Part shown: piece after piece, positions 37,258-50,653 of the stretch
Layout: the number at the start of each line of letters is the position of its first letter
How positions within the stretch are numbered: position 1 is the first letter of the stretch
From: an uncultured Gemmatimonadales bacterium
GTDB taxonomy: Bacteria; Gemmatimonadota; Gemmatimonadetes; Gemmatimonadales; Gemmatimonadaceae
Length of the DNA: 64,000 nucleotides
Direction: 5' to 3'
Assembly: GCA_963701965.1 (NCBI GenBank)
Contig: OY969695.1
Coordinates: forward strand, 896,001-960,000
Notes under the pieces: model-generated
What the model saw: the letters and a program-made list of their open reading frames with translations, nothing else
What the model was told of the DNA's origin: nothing
Databases searched by the model: none
Position numbers and translations under genes: made by a program

Positions 37258-38622
37258 CTACCGGCCGGTCTCCTGAGGAAAAACTGACGTAGTAGGGTCT
37301 TGGTCCGGCCCCAACCCTCGATACGCCAAGGCTTCAGCGACCGCTGCCCGCGTCATCGACGCCGTCTCGTTGAGATCCGCTACCGTGCGTGCGACCCGCA
37401 GGATGCGGTGATAGCCTCGTGCCGACAGGTGCAGGCGGGTCGCCGCGGTGTCCAGGAGGGTTCGCGCGTCGGCATCGATTGGCGTGTGGGCATCGATCGA
37501 CCGGCCGTTCGCTTGCGCATTGCACTCTGAGCCCTTGTAGCGCCGGCGCTGGACCGCGCGTGCCGCCTCTACACGGGCGCGAATGGTCGCGGAGTCCTCA
37601 ATGGCGCCGGAACCGGACAGGGTTTTGATTGGAACCGGGCCGGCAAAGATCTGCATGTCGATGCGATCGGCGAGGGGACCGGACAGTCGGGCGCGATAGC
37701 GGCTGACGTCACGCGCCGGGCAGTGACACGGAGTCGTCGGATCTCCGGCATGGCCGCACGGGCACGGATTGGCGGCACCCACCAGGGTGAAGCGCGCCGG
37801 ATAGGTCACGCTGCGCTGCGCGCGCGTGATGACAATGCGGCCGTCTTCCATGGGCTGTCGCAGCGCCTCCAGCGCCGCGCGCGAGAATTCCAAGAGCTCA
37901 TCCAGAAAGAGCACCCCCAAGTGCGCGAGGCTCGCCTCGCCGGGAGTCGGCGATTTCCCCCCTCCCACGAGACCGGCGTATGAGATGGTATGATGCGGGG
38001 CGCGGAACGGGCGCGGCGGAGGAATCGGACCATCGCCAGACAGGATGCCGGCAACCGACTGCACGGCGATGACTTCGAGCGCCTCCTCCTCGGAGAGGGA
38101 CGGCAAGATCGTGGGAATCCTCCGGGCAAGCATGGTCTTCCCCGTTCCCGGTGGACCCAGGAGGAGCGCGTTGTGTCCGCCGGCAGCGGCGACTTCGATC
38201 GCGCGCTTGGCGGATTCCTGACCGACGACATTGCTGAAGTCGACGCCCCCCTCGCGTCGCGTGGGTACGCGGCGAGAGGGTATGTCTGCGCCGCGGAGTG
38301 ATCCGGAGGAGAGGGCATGCACGAGCTCACGCAGGGTGCTTTGCGTGAGCAACCGGTCGTGCCGCGCCAATGGCGCCACGAGCGCCGCCTCGCTGACGTT
38401 GGCCGGCGGCACGAGAAGACGAGTGCGGGAGTCCAGGGAGGACACAGACCGGGCGATGGGCAGCGATCCACGCACGGCGCGGATCGCGCCATCGAGGCCG
38501 AGCTCGCCGACGAAGACGATCCCGGCGAGGCGCCGCGCGTCGATCTGGTTCGTCGCCGCGAGGACGCCGAGGGCAATCGGGAGATCGAACGCGGTGCCGC
38601 GTTTCACGACGTCGGCCGGGGC
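37258..38622 (-). pseudogene. comM: comM/yifB Mg-chelatase-like AAA+ ATPase, 5'-truncated by island insertion
   Basis: APADVVKRGTAFDLPIA, GPPGTGKTM, PFRAPHHT, LFLDE, NPCPCG intact; homology stops just before APAD, where ITVNL is expected. Confidence 0.9.
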
Positions 38623-39042
38623 AAACGGGACAACAGCAAAAACGGAACGCACTGGTCCACATCCGAATCCCACTTCCAAGACGACTCGCAGCCCCAGGAC
38701 AGAGCAAGTCTCGGTCGAGCTACTACCGGCGGCTAAGGAAGGAGAGGGCCCAGGCCGCTCAATCGATCTCAACAGACGCGAAATCAGAGCGCCGTGTTCA
38801 ACGGGACTCGACCGTGCGCGCCATGAGGGCTCGCGCGCTATCAGGGCGTCGCGAACTATCCTGATCCAGACAGGGGTAGGGGAGGTACCACAAATCCGGC
38901 TCTGTTGCCTTGCCGCGAGATAGTGCGCCTCGGCCGCCTGGGCCTTGTGTGACTGTTGCCGGGCATTGCCGGCTATATCCGGGCACGTGAGCTTTCACAC
39001 CTAGAACCGAAGTCCGCAGTTTGACGCGCACCGGCCTACGTA

Positions 39043-42437: not shown

Positions 42438-42935
42438 CTAGGGCGTCGCGGCCTCCCGAGCGCGGCCGCGTGGTTTGGCCGCGGCGCGCGCCTCGCGGGT
42501 GGAGGCGCGGAGCGTCGCTGAGAGGTCAGCGTGCTGGCGCATGCGGTAACTGTTGCCGCGGATGTTGACAATGTGGCAATGGTGCACCAGTCGATCGATC
42601 AGGGCACTGGCCATGACGTCGTCGCCGAACACCTCGCCCCACTCGTCGAAGCCTTTGTTGCTTGTGAGGACGGTCGCGGCGTGCTCGTAGCGGCGACTCA
42701 TGAGCTGGAAGAAGAGCATCGCCCCGGTCCGCGTGATCGGCAGATACCCGATCTCGTCGACGACCAACACGCTGGGGAAGACGAGCGTCTTCATCCGCTG
42801 CGCGAGGCGACCGGCCTGTTGCGCCTCCTCCAGCGAGGCGATCAAGTCGGCCAGGGTGCCGTAGTAGACGCGCCGCCCGCCCTGGGCCGCGGCGATGGCG
42901 AGACTGATCGCCAGGTGGCTCTTGCCGACACCGGG
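42438..42935 (-). pseudogene. istB: IstB ATPase, 3' fragment
   Basis: PGVGKSHLAISL, LVVDEIGYLP, LTSNK, DRLVHH...GNSYR. Confidence 0.92.
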
Positions 42936-43271
42936 CGGTACAACGACATGGTGCCCATCGCGGCGTAGTCCGCGTGCAGTATCCCTGGCACCCGCTCCAC
43001 GGGCAGGACCTGGTCGTGTGGAAGGCGCACACGTCCGGCGGCGGGCGCAGTTACGTGGTCGCGCTGGCGGAATGGAACGATGACCCTGCTGCCGCAGTGG
43101 ATGACGGAGCCTGCCGCGGCGACCGGTGCGGTGGTGGTCGCACGGCCGCACGTGTCGGTCGCAGCGCTCGAGCAACTGCGACGCCTGGTTGACGCGGTGC
43201 GACAGCCGGTGGACTGTCTTCCCCATCCGCCATCGTCACCGTCACCACCGCCCGGGAGCCTCAATGTCTGA
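42936..43271 (+). CDS. DUF5372/Y4bD-like small protein; start codon located at the other element end; +1 indel at about 43071
   Basis: VRVQYPWHPLHGQ...DGTMTLLPQWMTEP...VSVAALEQLRRLV; family recognised from memory. Confidence 0.65.
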
Positions 43272-43455
43272 TCGTCGCACCGCGCTCGTTCCGTCCGCTG
43301 TCCAGCGTTCCCTCGCATTGGGGGAAGGCACCGTACACTGGGAGACGCTGCCGTCCACCGTCCGGTCCGCGGTCCTCGAGATGTGGGTCGCCCTGCTCGC
43401 GGCCCACGTTGCCCAGGCGTCAACCGCAGCCGTGATGACGGAGCCGACCCCGTGA
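43264..43455 (+). CDS. Small accessory protein of the recombinase element
   Basis: 63 aa, overlaps both neighbours; WETLPSTVRSAVLEMWVALL. Confidence 0.6.
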   Translation: MSDRRTALVPSAVQRSLALGEGTVHWETLPSTVRSAVLEMWVALLAAHVAQASTAAVMTEPTP

Positions 43456-45564
43456 CCGGCGCGAAGATCACCCCACCCATGTCGGCCGAACCGCGTACGT
43501 GTACGTGCGCCAGTCGACAATGACGCAGGTGCACGATAACCGGGAGAGTCAGCGGCGGCAGTACGAGCTCGCCGACCACGCCCGGACGCTCGGCTGGACG
43601 CAGGTGGAGGTCATCGACGACGATCTCGGTCGGTCGGGCAGCGGCCGGGTCGCGCGGCCTGGCTTCGAACGACTGGTCTCCGCCGTCTGCCTGGAAGAAG
43701 TCGGTGCCGTGCTCGCGCTGGAAGTCTCTCGTCTCGCGCGCAACAGTCGCGACTGGGCGCATCTCGTTGACCTGTGCGGGCTCACCAGCACACTGATCAT
43801 CGACGGCGAGGGGATCTACGATCCGCGGGACTTCAACGATCGCCTCCTCCTGGGCCTCAAGGGGACGATGAGCGAGTGGGAACTGGGCGTCCTCCGCCAA
43901 CGCTCGCTCGCCGCCCTCAAGCAGAAGGCGGAGCGGGGCGAACTGTACACCAGCGTCGCGATCGGCTTCCTGCGCACGCGCGACGCCGCCGGCACCAGTC
44001 GGGTCGAACTCGATCCCGATCTCCGGATCCAGGAGGCGATCCGCGGCGTGTTCCGCAGCTTCGCGCGGACCGGGAGCGTGCGCCAGACGCTGCTCTGGTT
44101 CCGGAGCGAACGGATCGCGCTGCCCGCCGTGCGCTATGGCCCATTCGGCCGTGCCGTCGAGTGGAAGGTTCCGGTCTACGGCACGGTGCACAAGATGCTG
44201 ACCAACCCGATCTACGCCGGCGCGTACGCGTACGGTCGGACGACCACGCGGACGACCGTGGCGAACGGACGTGCCGAGAAGCGCCGCGGCGCCCACACCG
44301 CGCGGGCCGACTGGGCGGTCTTGCTGCGGGACCACCATCCGGGCTATATCGACTGGAGCGAGTACGAGGCGCATCAGGCGACGATCGCGGAGAACGCGCA
44401 GATGAAGGGACTCCTGGGTGGTCGCGGTGCGCCGCGGCGCGGCATCGCTCTCCTGGCCGGACTGCTCCGCTGTCGTCGGTGCGGACGTCGGCTGCATGTG
44501 ACGTATAGCGGGACCAACGGGACCGTGCGCCGCTACGCGTGCCAGGGCGCGGCGATCAACCACGGGACCGACAAGTGTCTCTCGTTCGGCGGGCGCGTCG
44601 TCGAGGCGGCGGTTGAGGCGGCCGTGCTGACGGTCATCGCGCCGGGCGCGATCGAGGCGGCGATCGGGCATCCGCACAGGCCGATACGGCCCACGAGGAA
44701 CGCGGGGCGCAGGCGCGACTGCGCGTCGAGCAGGCCCGGTACGAGGCCGAGCGTGCGCGGCGCCAGTACGATGCGGTCGATCCCGCGTACCGCCTCGTCG
44801 CGGCCGAGCTGGAGCGACGGTGGAACGCGGCACTCGCCGCGCTGGCCGAGGCGGAGCGCGTGCTGGCCGGCCTCGAGGCCACGACGGCCACCACGCGGCC
44901 CGTCGACCACCGGTCGCTGCTCGCGCTGGCCGATGATCTGCCCGCCGTGTGGCACGACGCGCGCACGGACGTCCGACTGAAGAAGCGGATCGTGCGCGTG
45001 CTGATCGAGGAGATCCTTGTCGATGTCGATATGGGCGCCGCGCAGGTCCAGGGCGTCATCCGGTGGGCCGGCGGACAGCATAGCATGATCACCGTGCGGA
45101 AGAACCGGACCGGCGAGCATCGCCGCACGACCGATCGCGACGTCGTCGCCTTGGTGCGCCAGCTCGTCGCGGTCCTGCCCAATGGCCCGATCGCGGCCGT
45201 CCTCAACCGGCTGGGATACCAGACCGGCAAGGGTAACACGTGGACGGCGAGCCGCGTCGTCGGACTGCGCCACTACTACGAGATCCCCGTCCACGACGTC
45301 GAACGCAAGGCGCGCGAGGGTCTCCTGACGCTGGAAGAGGCGGCGGCCCGCACGGGCGTGAGTCCCTCGAGCGTCCGGCGCTGCATCGCCGACGGACTGC
45401 TGCCGGCCACGCAGGTCGTCGCGTATGCCCCGTGGGTGATCCGGTCCGCGGATCTCGACGTGCCGGCTGTCGCTACCGCGCTCGAACGCGTCCGCACCAG
45501 TCCCCGCGCCCCGCGGCGCATGGACCGCACGCAGCTAAGTCTCGACCCACCATCCACATCGTGA
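43452..45564 (+). CDS. Large serine recombinase (homopolymer indels at about 43472 and 44667)
   Basis: AYVYVRQS catalytic motif, SRLARN, recombinase domain, LLAGLLRCRRCG zinc ribbon, coiled coil, C-terminal HTH. Confidence 0.93.
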
Positions 45565-45589
45565 GGTGACGTAGTATGTCGCTGGATCG

Positions 45590-45925
45590 GGTGGTCCGAG
45601 GAGCACGACGTTCTCCTTCCGCTCGACGAAGCCCAGGGTGTGGAGACTCTCGATCTGCTCCCGCTTGAGCGAAGGCTGGAAGGTGAAGTCGAAGTCCGCG
45701 AGCGTCTTCACGGCCGGGAGGCGAGAGGAGCGCATCGCCGCTTCCAGCCGACGGTTGTTGCGCAACCCGATCTGTGCGCCGAGCAGGGCTTCGAGTGCGG
45801 CCGCGGCGGGGAGGCTGCCCGCGTCCACGCGCTGGAGGACGGTATCGAGCGCTTCCAAGGCCCTTGGCATCTTGAGGTCGGCGAGTTGCGCGCGCAGGCG
45901 CTCGCGGACGGTCAGCCCCGGTCAT
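45590..45925 (-). pseudogene. istB: IstB ATPase, 5' fragment
   Basis: LADLKMP, KTLADFDFTFQPSL, ENVVLLGPP; ATGA overlap with istA; indel in a G4 run near the start. Confidence 0.9.
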
Positions 45926-46947
45926 GAGACGGCCTCCGCGAGCGCGGCGTACGCGGCGAGCGGGCGGCGTTCGACGACGACTATGCGGGTCGGGATGGGG
46001 GCCGCCTGGGGATCGCCGGGCCCGGCAGGCGGGACGCCCCGCGGATACGGGCGGGGCGCGAGCGGCTGGAGCGCGGGCCGCTCGTCACGCTCGAAGCGGA
46101 CGCGCGGCGCTTCCCGCGTCGTCCCGTGCACCCGCACGTTCGCGGTCGCCTCGAGCCAGGTGCGCGCCTGCGCGGCGAGATCGGCGTCGCCCAGGAAGTC
46201 GCGCCCGTAGAGGAAGTTCCGCCGCACATAGCTCACCGGCCGCTCGACCTTCCCCTTCGTCTGGGCCCGATACGGGCGACAGGCGCGGATCCGGAACCCC
46301 CAGTGGGCGGCGACCCGCAGGAACTCGGCGTTCTCGAGGAGTCGCCCGCCCTCAGGCCGCCGATCCTCGACGACCACGGCCCGCATCTGATCGAACAGCA
46401 CCTCGCGCGGGACGCCACCGAAGTAACCGAACGCCGTCTCCAACCCGTCGATCACGGCGGCCATCGTCTGCCGCGGGTAGAAGCCGAGCCAGAGGAGCCG
46501 CGAGTAGCCGAGGACGACGAGTAAGGCGTAGCGGCGGCCCCACGGGAAGCGGACCGTGGCGAAGTCGAGCTGCGCCTGCACGCCCGGTGGTGTCTCGAAC
46601 CGGACGATCGGTTCGGGCTCGGGGCGTGGGCGCACCCGGGCGACGTAGTCGCGCAGCTGCGTGATGCCACCGTCGTACCCGGCGGCGCGGACCTCCTCGA
46701 ACAAGCGCACGGCGCTGAGCTCGGGGTACGTCGCGAGCCGGGCGTCGATGATCGGCTGATAGCGCGCCAACTTCCCGGGCGCCGCCCGGCGGATCCGGGG
46801 TGCCGTCACCTCCCGATCGAGCTGGCCCGTCTGGAGCCAGTGATAAATCACGCGGCGACTGACACCGAGCTGCGCGGCGATCGCCGTCTTCGAGAGTCCC
46901 TCGTCCAGCATCTGTCTGAGTAGCACGAGTCGATCCGCTCCGTACAC
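45922..46947 (-). CDS. istA: IS21 transposase IstA
   Basis: HTH; RFETPPGVQAQLDF, LGYSR, FGGVPREVLFDQM, CRPYRAQTKGKVER. Confidence 0.96.
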   Translation of the reverse strand: MYGADRLVLLRQMLDEGLSKTAIAAQLGVSRRVIYHWLQTGQLDREVTAPRIRRAAPGKLARYQPIIDARLATYPELSAVRLFEEVRAAGYDGGITQLRDYVARVRPRPEPEPIVRFETPPGVQAQLDFATVRFPWGRRYALLVVLGYSRLLWLGFYPRQTMAAVIDGLETAFGYFGGVPREVLFDQMRAVVVEDRRPEGGRLLENAEFLRVAAHWGFRIRACRPYRAQTKGKVERPVSYVRRNFLYGRDFLGDADLAAQARTWLEATANVRVHGTTREAPRVRFERDERPALQPLAPRPYPRGVPPAGPGDPQAAPIPTRIVVVERRPLAAYAALAEAVS

Positions 46948-47331
46948 TGCGTCTCCCCAGCAGAGGAGACGGGAACGTGGCACCGATCGGCGCGATGCCG
47001 AGGCCGGCGCTCGACCCGAGCTGGCCTGACACCCCGCCCTAGGACTGGAGTGGACTGTGCAACTTCAACCGGTGAAAGTGCGCAATCTCACATTGGTGAT
47101 GACAACGTGTCGCCCAGCGCGCCGTAGAGCACTCCTCGGGTCCGTAGTGGTGCAGCCCGACCCTCCTCAACGGGCCGCGTGTCGCAGAGTCGGCACGCCA
47201 ATGCTGCGCGCGGACCAACCGCAACCGGTCGCAACCGGTGTCCGCGGTCGCGGCAGTCCACCACTCCGAGGTGTTTTGGTGGCCGTAGGGCTCGGGCCCG
47301 CTTCCCGCGTCGCCGACCTCGGAAAGGACAC

Positions 47332-48481: not shown

Positions 48482-48772
48482 CTATGACGCCTTGGCTCGG
48501 GGCGTTGGTCGGCCGCCACCGCGCTTCCTCGGCAGCGGATCAGCCTGGTGCAATGCCTTGCCAAGTTCTTCCCAATTGATGCCGAGGCCGACGCACAAGG
48601 CGCGCAGCTTCCGAAATCCGATGTTCCGTTCCCCCCGTTCGACCGCACCCACGAAACCGCGATCGATGTGGGCCTCATAGGCGAAGCGTTCTTGCGAGTA
48701 ACCCGCCGCGCGACGAAAGGCACGTATGACCTCCGCCAGCGCCGCGAGTTCGTCATATCGCTCTACAGCCAT
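48482..48772 (-). CDS. XRE-family regulator (C-protein-like)
   Basis: IRAFRRAAGYSQERFAYEAHIDRGFVGAVERGERNI. Confidence 0.9.
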   Translation of the reverse strand: MAVERYDELAALAEVIRAFRRAAGYSQERFAYEAHIDRGFVGAVERGERNIGFRKLRALCVGLGINWEELGKALHQADPLPRKRGGGRPTPRAKAS

Positions 48773-48889
48773 GTTGCTTCTTGGTGCTCCAGATCAGAAG
48801 TGAGAGGGGGCGGTGGCGCATGTCAACGAACCATGCCCTCATGACGGTTCACGGTAACACGGATCGCGACGTATCGCGAATGTTCATAT

Positions 48890-48949
48890 GTCTACCAATC
48901 GGCGGACGACTGACTGGCGGTCTACCGATTGGCGGTCGACCAAAAGGCC
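48890..48949. repeat. Four imperfect 15-bp tandem repeats; probable operator array
   Basis: GTCTACCAATCGGCG / GACGACTGACTGGCG / GTCTACCGATTGGCG / GTCGACCAAAAGGCC between divergent XRE genes. Confidence 0.75.
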
Positions 48950-48971
48950 CCCACGCGCTAATCTCGCGGCC

Positions 48972-49241
48972 GTGTCGAACCGCTCAGAGCTGCTTGCCAT
49001 TGGCCAAAGCCTGCGCAGCCTCCGTGAGGCCGCCGGAATGACGCAGGAAGACCTTGCAGAGGCGGCCGATCTCCACCGCACCGAGATCGGTCGGTTTGAA
49101 CGGGCCGAGCGGAATATCGGCATCTTGACCGTCCGCAGAGTCCTCGCCGCCCTGGGCAAGTCGTGGATTGACCTGGGGCGGGAGCTAGAGGCCCGTGACC
49201 CGTTGAACCGGGCTACTCGCCGGAGCGGTCGCCGCGCTTAG
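48972..49241 (+). CDS. XRE-family regulator (C-protein-like)
   Basis: IGQSLRSLREAAGMTQEDLAEAADLHRTEIGRFERAERNI; GTG start chosen downstream of the repeats. Confidence 0.9.
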   Translation: MSNRSELLAIGQSLRSLREAAGMTQEDLAEAADLHRTEIGRFERAERNIGILTVRRVLAALGKSWIDLGRELEARDPLNRATRRSGRRA

Positions 49242-49366: not shown

Positions 49367-50653
49367 TTGGCCTGGACAGACCTGTGGCGGACGAACGGTC
49401 CCTCTTTCTATTCCGATGAACCCCTCCTCCGTCATAGCGCATTCTTCGCGACGGCGGCGACGACCCCAGACGATTCCCCCGAGTTCGAGCTACTCACCGT
49501 TGGCCTGCTGGTGCTGCGTCTGCTCGACCGATGGCGGGCACGCGACACAACGGACCGGGACGTCAAGTTCAGCGAATTCATCGCCGTCAAACGCCGCGTG
49601 GAGGCCATGTCGGAGGGGCCGGCGAGGCGGATATTGGCGGAGCTAGTCAACACGATCAGCGCCTTTGCCTACGGCCGCTCCGACTCTCGGATGGCCACGC
49701 TGCTCGCCTTTGCCGAAATCCTCGAACACGCCAGCCAATGGGAACCGGCCGCGGACACTTACCGCACCGCCATTGACTTGGCCGGCGATCGGATCGCGGA
49801 CCGCGAGCTGCTGCCACGGGCGTACGATCGCGCCGCCTACTGCATCCGACTGGTCGGTCGTCTCGATGAAGCGCTCGAATTGGTGAACGAGGGGAGCGCC
49901 ATCGCGGCTGAGATCCGCGACCCCTATTGGGCGCTGCGTTTGCGTATCAACGCCGCCCTGATCGAAGTGCGGAAGGGAAATCTGCCGGAGGCCGAATTCC
50001 AGTTGGACGCGATCGTCGAGGATGCCGAGACCACAGGTCAGCTCGAGATGGTGGCGTGGGGCAAGCATGAACGGGGACACGTGGCCTACGAGAGGAACGA
50101 GAACGAACTGGCCGCCACGCTATTCCACGCCGCGAGCCTCGGACATACCGATCCTGCGCGCGTCCAGCGCGCGGTCCTTGACCTGGCGCTGGCCCTGGCG
50201 GATCTGGGCCACATTGGGCACGCGCAGCGGGCCTACCAGGTCGTGCGTAACGCCAGGGAAGACCACGACGGCATACGGGCGTTGGCCGGAATCAACTTGA
50301 TGCGACTCGCCCACATGACCGACGACCGGGCGCCCTTTGAGCAGCTCCGTCGCGAGCTGGGGAGTGAGCGCATGACGGGCCGGTTGCGAGCGCACTATCA
50401 CCTGATTGCCGGGCAAGGACTACGGCGGTTCGGCGATCCGGATGGGGCTCGTGCCGCATTTCAGCGCGCCATTGAAGTGGCCGAACAGTTCAAGGTGTTC
50501 AAGCTCGTCGTCGAAGCTGAGGCGCTACTCAACGCGACTGGGGACGAGCGCCCGCGGCCGAGAAAGACGAAAGCGGGCGCCAGGGCACTGGCTCCGATTC
50601 TGGCCGACATTGACCAGAGGCGCGGACCGTTCGCAGGGGCGGCACAAGACTGA
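49367..50653 (+). CDS. Cytoplasmic TPR-like all-helical protein
   Basis: Repeats WEPAADTYRTA, GRLDEALEL, GNLPEAEFQL, GDPDGARAAFQRAIEVA; no signal peptide; start uncertain. Confidence 0.8.
   Translation: MAWTDLWRTNGPSFYSDEPLLRHSAFFATAATTPDDSPEFELLTVGLLVLRLLDRWRARDTTDRDVKFSEFIAVKRRVEAMSEGPARRILAELVNTISAFAYGRSDSRMATLLAFAEILEHASQWEPAADTYRTAIDLAGDRIADRELLPRAYDRAAYCIRLVGRLDEALELVNEGSAIAAEIRDPYWALRLRINAALIEVRKGNLPEAEFQLDAIVEDAETTGQLEMVAWGKHERGHVAYERNENELAATLFHAASLGHTDPARVQRAVLDLALALADLGHIGHAQRAYQVVRNAREDHDGIRALAGINLMRLAHMTDDRAPFEQLRRELGSERMTGRLRAHYHLIAGQGLRRFGDPDGARAAFQRAIEVAEQFKVFKLVVEAEALLNATGDERPRPRKTKAGARALAPILADIDQRRGPFAGAAQD

Follow-up and report, generated by a model that had tools for sequence, protein, structure and literature searches.

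Introduction

In the transposons Tn4451 and Tn4453 (recombinase TnpX), a promoter is reportedly located at the junction of the excised circle. Circle-junction promoters are also described for ICEKp1 and ICEclc (PMC13023037). Elsewhere the attachment site lies inside a gene: in mycobacteriophage BPs, attP is located in the repressor gene 33, and integration shortens the C-terminus of the repressor and turns it on (PMC4557955), and in fuselloviruses of the SSV type (SSV1) the gene of the tyrosine integrase is itself split at the att site on integration (PMC5861418). A fourth system concerns the recombination directionality factors (RDFs) of serine integrases, the binding of which has been placed, for the SPbeta RDF, on DBD2 and the hinge of the coiled coil (PMC11722253, PMC12286644). 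Here we describe a 2,656-bp element encoding a large serine recombinase, found in a stretch of 64,000 nt from an uncultured Gemmatimonadales bacterium (assembly GCA_963701965.1, contig OY969695.1, positions 896,001 to 960,000; hereafter the window). Its first open reading frame (ORF), ORF1, of the DUF5372 family, lacks a start codon in the integrated state. Sequence comparison of 87 related elements confirms that ORF1 is a real, conserved and family-wide split gene, which takes its start from the right end of the element and is complete only once that end has been linked to the left one.

The locus resembles each of these systems and also differs from each. As in BPs, attP lies within a coding sequence and integration alters the protein, which makes a switch, and the likeness to attP-in-repressor phage switches noted in the preliminary description is borne out; the difference is that the element here is non-viral and has a serine recombinase, and that integration strips a predicted recombinase cofactor of its Shine-Dalgarno (SD) sequence and start codon and so switches it off. 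As in SSV-type viruses, a recombination gene is broken by an internal att site upon integration; here, however, the serine recombinase remains whole, and it is an accessory gene that is cut, by no more than five initial codons and the SD. Joining the ends in the circle would turn on an element gene, as in Tn4451, which also uses a large serine recombinase, and in the two ICEs; their control is transcriptional, whereas the junction described here builds a translation start and a coding frame. Finally, ORF1 resembles the SPbeta RDF as a small element-encoded protein predicted to sit at the DBD2/coiled-coil base, but these RDFs promote excision whereas ORF1 is whole only after the ends have joined. 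The genes of these RDFs are whole in the prophage; in most homologues ORF1 has neither a start nor an SD at attL. ORF1 is not a phage repressor nor a tyrosine integrase, the split gene being DUF5372 and the recombinase a whole serine enzyme; the element works like the state switches of BPs and SSV and is a member of neither group.

Insertion into many target genes is also a property of the multi-targeting large serine recombinases (LSRs) of the DUF4368/TndX-like clade (10.1101/2021.11.05.467528). The window recombinase differs from these by a C-terminal HTH_17 domain and two small partner genes, and DUF4368, found in most but not all members of the clade, gave no match at E 0.1 in two pieces of the recombinase. 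The accessible text of the same survey does not describe an attP-spanning gene; its supplementary tables may list such att sites. Nor was the layout described in the literature searched, which leaves most subscription journals outside its coverage and in which DUF5372 is named in no paper. The y4bA-y4bD repeats of Sinorhizobium fredii NGR234 are presumably members of the family; the titles and abstract beginnings of the literature on y4bA/y4pH/y4bD/NGRRS-1 do not concern the element.

The element and its joined ends

The element is inserted in the istB gene of an IS21 insertion sequence, on the minus strand, where it breaks the Walker A motif. Both of its ends carry the identity CGGG (42932-42935 and 45588-45591), and its removal in silico restores the istB motif GPPGVGKS on the minus strand. 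In a profile search with PF01695, the two istB halves meet at profile position 101: the 3' part (42438-42935, minus strand, E 3e-54) covers positions 101-235, and the 5' part (45590-45925, minus strand, E 1.2e-19) the positions up to 101. Three genes are found on the plus strand of the element: the headless ORF1 (42936-43271; PF17342, E 0.004, a match that stays under the cut-off because ORF1 is frameshifted), a 63-aa ORF2 with its own SD (43264-43455), and the large serine recombinase (43452-45564), whose GTG start overlaps the ORF2 stop. The recombinase has Resolvase, Recombinase and zinc-ribbon domains (PF00239, PF07508 and PF13408 matched) and a C-terminal HTH_17; its homologues are about 690-700 aa long. 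The element is present in a single copy in the window genome; a PF17342 profile search for a second copy was blank, as it also was in control genomes, and is hence uninformative.

The preliminary description had proposed that the start codon of the first gene reaches it across attP, and the coordinates on which this rests all check. Joining the ends at the GG core (42934-42935 at attL, placed by end comparison and the family core test; 45590-45591 at attR) brings together a right arm (45576-45589) and a left arm (42936-42949) of 14 nt each, which form a dyad matching at 11/14 positions by direct reading. The first triplet of the right arm is an ATG (45576), preceded by the SD GAGGTG (45563-45568) that overlaps the TGA stop codon of the recombinase (45562-45564). 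In the joined form, this ATG reads in frame into the left-end DUF5372 ORF, as first described, and the left arm provides ORF1 codons 6-10, the last of which is the conserved His codon. When the element is integrated, the ORF1 frame is closed by a TGA in the host flank (42905-42907, plus strand), and a GTG at 42974 is the only start before the YPWHP motif. This GTG has no clear SD: its anti-SD pairing amounts to -1.7 kcal/mol, against -10.0 kcal/mol for the ATG at 45576. A possible indel between 42936 and 42974 was checked on contigs of relatives from two DNA sequencing runs: none was present among 12 of the 23 indel rows, and one relative's contig spans 42936-42974 along with the istB flank.

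Coding signal across the junction

We collected 167 loci, of which 129 had a scored left arm and 90 had flanks, 88 of these being distinct for the empty-site test. The final set comprises 87 distinct two-ended elements, the window copy included and L064, with a mis-called right end, excluded; they represent 16 lineages at <70% recombinase identity. Among 201 genomes from the phylum, 9 contain relatives of the recombinase; such relatives are also present in 463 plasmid records and are common on rhizobial plasmids. Family elements measure 2,468-2,799 nt. The arms were found by position-weight matrices in which frame was not used. The joined ends make a 14+2+14 site: identity between left and right ends peaks only at 30-nt spacing, where the two ends agree at position 15 in 91% and at position 16 in 86% of the 90 loci, and the empty site regains the target motif in 48/88 cases at this spacing and in at most 12 at other spacings. 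The core is identical at both ends in 70 of the 87 elements, and in genome G606, which has four element copies, two identical copies at unrelated sites part exactly at GG on both sides; a right-end row for L175 that had been coupled with the left end of a different locus was disregarded.

The frame across attP in these homologues is not random. The CAT of the left arm is in the DUF5372 frame in 128/129 loci, and, with a single exception, the linker measures 30, 33, 36, 39 or 42 nt. Over the 57 nt of the junction, in-frame stops occur in none of the 87 elements (59 and 62 in the other two frames), whereas column shuffling gives a mean of 31.7 and a minimum of 19 in 2,000 shuffles. The right arm alone likewise has 0/87 stops for a shuffle mean of 11.9. 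When counted by lineage (16), the junction has 0 stops for a shuffle mean of 6.6 and a minimum of 2 in 1,000 shuffles; sub-segments alone are not significant. The variable core straddles codons 5 and 6, as the third base of the one and the first base of the other, mostly as CGN and NCG, so that stops are impossible there. The dyad symmetry of the site supplies a built-in control, the mirrored ATG of the minus strand: its frame meets a stop in 47/87 elements and it has an SD in 10%. An SD precedes the real ORF1 ATG in 79%, compared with 13% at the corresponding place in the host flank; the recombinase's own start has one in 93% of 86. Two elements (L046, L048) carry AAG in place of this ATG and have an in-frame ATG 9 nt upstream, as have, by eye, six further AAG loci outside the 87; the AAG loci are probably one lineage. 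The joined ORF1 encodes 150-179 aa in 78/87 elements. On the circle, 14-26 nt separate the recombinase stop from the ORF1 ATG in 81/87, so that ORF1 would become the downstream gene of a coupled pair.

Three observations weigh against a gene that is whole only on the circle. First, the ATG belongs to a dyad motif present on both arms, and in 72/87 left arms an ATG is read on the opposite strand. Second, the first triplet is ATG in 83/87 elements, but motifs containing ATG served as the seed of the right-arm matrix, which makes this count partly circular. Third, 20/87 elements, including that of the window, have an internal in-frame start that spares most of the domain, GTG 42974 sitting at the first strand of the domain. 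The symmetry of the motif and these internal starts would suit a reading in which the ATG is merely part of the recombinase-binding dyad, ORF1 is made from an internal or non-canonical start while integrated, and the continuity of the frame over attP is no more than incidental or historical. However, 67/87 elements have no internal ATG, GTG or TTG ahead of the YPxHP motif, and an SD accompanies only 1 of 24 internal starts. Moreover, the right arm itself avoids stops, the SD is on the coding side only, and natural full-length proteins exist (see below). We consider an incidental frame highly improbable.

Read-through from the host gene was also considered as a source of the ORF1 start and was ruled out: the istB and IS66 targets are antisense, and the XerD-type integrase at L030 is in another frame (by eye). 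The gene table of the plasmid carrying L176 (2290-4528) lists ORF2 and the recombinase and leaves out DUF5372, in line with an ORF that has no start; this table omits pseudogenes.

Joined forms in databases

The His could be located in 191 distinct database proteins, 11 of which start with a Met exactly nine residues before it. Of these 11, seven score positive against the right-arm profile; the other four score negative and were not counted. Protein P0327 is identical over 160/160 residues to the product reconstructed from L081, which indicates that joined ends occur in assemblies, and six other natural proteins begin alike. None of the four matches in genome G606 includes residue 1, and the Met is absent from the three left ends listed. 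P0139 and P0314 are encoded on contigs of 2,719 and 2,729 nt, within the size range of family elements. P0327 and P0368 come from 95-kb and 39-kb contigs, for which tandem copies or chimeras are possible. The joint of right end to left end is absent from the relatives' contigs (two runs), a result that says nothing on circles.

A predicted contact between ORF1 and the recombinase

The AlphaFold structure of ORF1 comprises a confident 90-residue domain, made of four strands and a long helix, followed by a low-confidence tail. The DUF5372 domain is accordingly modelled as a predicted SH3-like barrel plus helix. The best fold match, to Spt5 KOW (VIA Z 5.5, root-mean-square deviation 1.6, 44 aligned), indicates a generic SH3/KOW/Tudor likeness below the level of relatives. 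A Foldseek search gave no match at E 0.001, and an Atlas search with ORF1 matched DUF5372 clusters only.

The ORF1 domain of L011 was then modelled with residues 270-689 of the L011 recombinase. The complex scored 0.74, as opposed to 0.00 for the best of 3 controls; a mark of 0.74 is reached by 116/157 solved and 2/215 mismatched pairs. At least 78% of the contacts agree between runs, and the partner pLDDT is at least 78. The predicted interface on the recombinase (residues 332-339, 387-400 and 475-537) places the conserved His-Pro and the C-terminal helix of ORF1 against the zinc ribbon (DBD2) and both ends of the coiled coil. ORF1 is thus predicted to bind the zinc-ribbon/coiled-coil base of the recombinase.

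This interface falls in the region of RDF binding (PMC11722253, PMC12286644), and corresponds to the SPbeta RDF site on the DBD2/coiled-coil hinge. ORF1 could accordingly be an RDF of the excision type, made only on the circle and bound to the same site, which would block prompt reinsertion and cause sister copies to excise, by positive feedback or as a form of immunity, for as long as the protein persists and the circle has not entered a naive cell. The existence of multi-copy genomes, such as G606 with its four copies, is consistent with such a role. However, the first excision would have to proceed without ORF1, and an element with no transfer or replication gene would presumably be lost if its circle were barred from reinsertion. 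In addition, ORF2 and the fused HTH_17 domain would be at hand as excision helpers when the element is integrated. We regard this alternative as unlikely, though the most probable of the alternatives to the role proposed below.

Target sites and a model for the excised circle

The family (loci L003-L165) inserts almost always in conserved motifs of genes of other mobile elements. By motif pattern, the 87 empty sites fall into 39 Walker A, 13 XerD-type LGH and 7 IS66-type sites, with 28 unassigned or mislabelled. Further targets, identified by eye from their motifs, are what we take to be reverse transcriptases of group II introns and transposases like those of IS110, IS4, IS1380 and IS91, together with a few host genes. 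Judged from these insertion sites, the targeting pattern of the family is hyperparasitic. L172 (3160-5740) and L173 (in G606) are one element inserted in istB and in the Walker A motif of an unrelated P-loop protein, and L049 is similar; this suggests that the target is read as DNA and not as a gene. In canonical attB sites, the DBD2 motif lies nearer the core than it does in attP, by 4-5 bp. No such displacement was found in 83 attB sites at shifts of -10 to +10: the mean score of the outer motif, which we equate with that of DBD2, is -12 or lower in attB half-sites at every shift, against +13 for attP arms.

If present only after excision, ORF1 cannot trigger the first excision, and a non-replicating circle must reinsert. 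Because of these two points, and because the targets lack the outer att motif, a role in licensing integration is favoured. On balance, we lean towards ORF1 being a circle-only, recombinase-binding cofactor that likely licenses reinsertion of the excised circle. Of the roles put forward in the preliminary description, directionality or targeting fits the predicted binding to the recombinase, and a replication factor has no support. In the proposed mechanism, the integrated element would yield only ORF2 and the recombinase, each from its own SD, and these would excise the element. On the circle, ribosomes ending recombinase synthesis would re-initiate at the ATG 14-26 nt downstream, cross attP and make ORF1. 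ORF1 would reset the geometry of the coiled coil, letting attP pair with a target that has no outer att motif, and integration would split the ORF1 gene again. In this scheme ORF1 would be an integration cofactor that senses the state of the element and acts in one shot, and would thus mirror an excision factor. More tentatively, and with chances that we put somewhat short of even, the family as a whole may be a widespread group of minimal serine-recombinase elements, parasitic on conserved motifs in the genes of other mobile elements, with an inverse directionality factor: an integration cofactor whose gene exists only on the circle and is destroyed by the very insertion that the cofactor makes possible.

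The arrangement of the three genes bears on a further alternative. A counterpart of ORF2, of 52-70 aa, is found in most homologues. In most lineages (e.g., L011:2323-2511) it has its own SD, a QxxLF motif and one helix, lies in the +1 frame over the tail of ORF1 and reaches slightly beyond the start of the recombinase, the ORF1 tail being an alternative frame of ORF2. ORF2 is a candidate excision helper; an Atlas search with it returned unnamed clusters only, under 0.9. The ORF1 stop overlaps the recombinase start (ATGA/GTGA) in 66/87 elements, targets vary between elements, and KOW/SH3-like barrels often contact nucleic acid (fold matches of ORF1 reach Z 5.5 at most). These points would fit a circle-only ORF1 that is mainly a subunit for target selection or allosteric activation, with no effect on direction, or whose translation chiefly couples recombinase synthesis to the circle. 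However, the recombinase has a strong SD of its own, as described above, the window's lineage differs in that ORF1 ends at ORF2 instead, and the ORF1 tail may be open passively as the alternative frame of ORF2. This second alternative is, in our view, improbable.

Against the role as a cofactor of reinsertion, several points must be set. The direction of the ORF1 effect is deduced from gene logic only, and known binders of that site promote excision. The modelled complex is that of the L011 proteins and not of the frameshifted copy of the window. The DNA behind the full-length database proteins may consist of tandem copies or chimeric contigs, and the attP DNA pattern was found in 0/167 loci, on no viral contig and in 0/401 and 0/5 genomes, with the pattern being strict and circles rarely assembled. 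Lastly, no sigma-70 promoter or terminator match is present in 42800-45700, and the mean -35 match is 2.0 in attP vs 2.07 in attL, thus without gain, for the sigma-70 consensus only and in GC-rich hosts.

Serine integrases are widely used tools of genome engineering, and the cofactors described in the papers cited here promote excision. If the licensing role of ORF1 is true, a circle-only cofactor would represent a new logic of direction control and provide a function for the orphan family DUF5372. It may also explain why some predicted recombinases fail in tests without a partner, since the partner gene is overlooked or cut short when integrated copies are annotated, and would provide a switchable integrase of compact size for which many target specificities exist in nature.

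Assembly quality of the window copy

The first reading overlooked that the joined ORF1, as assembled, leaves its frame at about 43071 and ends at 90 aa; the recombinase, as assembled, contains two frameshifts. The relatives' contigs of both sequencing runs lack the extra base at 43071 and have one additional base after 43470; those of one run also have an additional base after 44665. Should the extra base near 43071 be erroneous, ORF1 with its right-end start would be about 116 aa long; if the bases missing near 43470 and 44665 are errors, the recombinase would comprise about 704 aa. The essential rpoB gene of the window genome (contig C1, 1454098-1458625) is also split over two frames, while rpoC is whole, and the rpoB split makes other frameshifts reported from this genome doubtful. 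The three frameshifts of this copy are likely assembly errors. The 5' end of istB (45918-45925) also seems out of frame with its own ATG, and a relative's contig has extra bases; this is likely another assembly indel.

Genomic context

Downstream on the plus-strand coordinates, the istA-type transposase of the host IS21 (rve and helix-turn-helix domains) occupies 45922-46983 on the minus strand. Contig C1 of the window genome carries four whole, element-free istB genes (at 767761, 1195421, 1254898 and 3134071) with similar Walker A DNA. An ORF at 37258-38772 (minus strand), which we take to be an Mg-chelatase-like comM/YifB gene without its normal N-terminus, adjoins a region of mostly lower G+C content (39000-64000); the IS21 may thus be part of a genomic island inserted into a comM/YifB-like gene. 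Two small divergent ORFs at 48482-49241, presumably XRE-type helix-turn-helix regulators, are found in the same region, with a TPR-like ORF beside them at 49367-50653.

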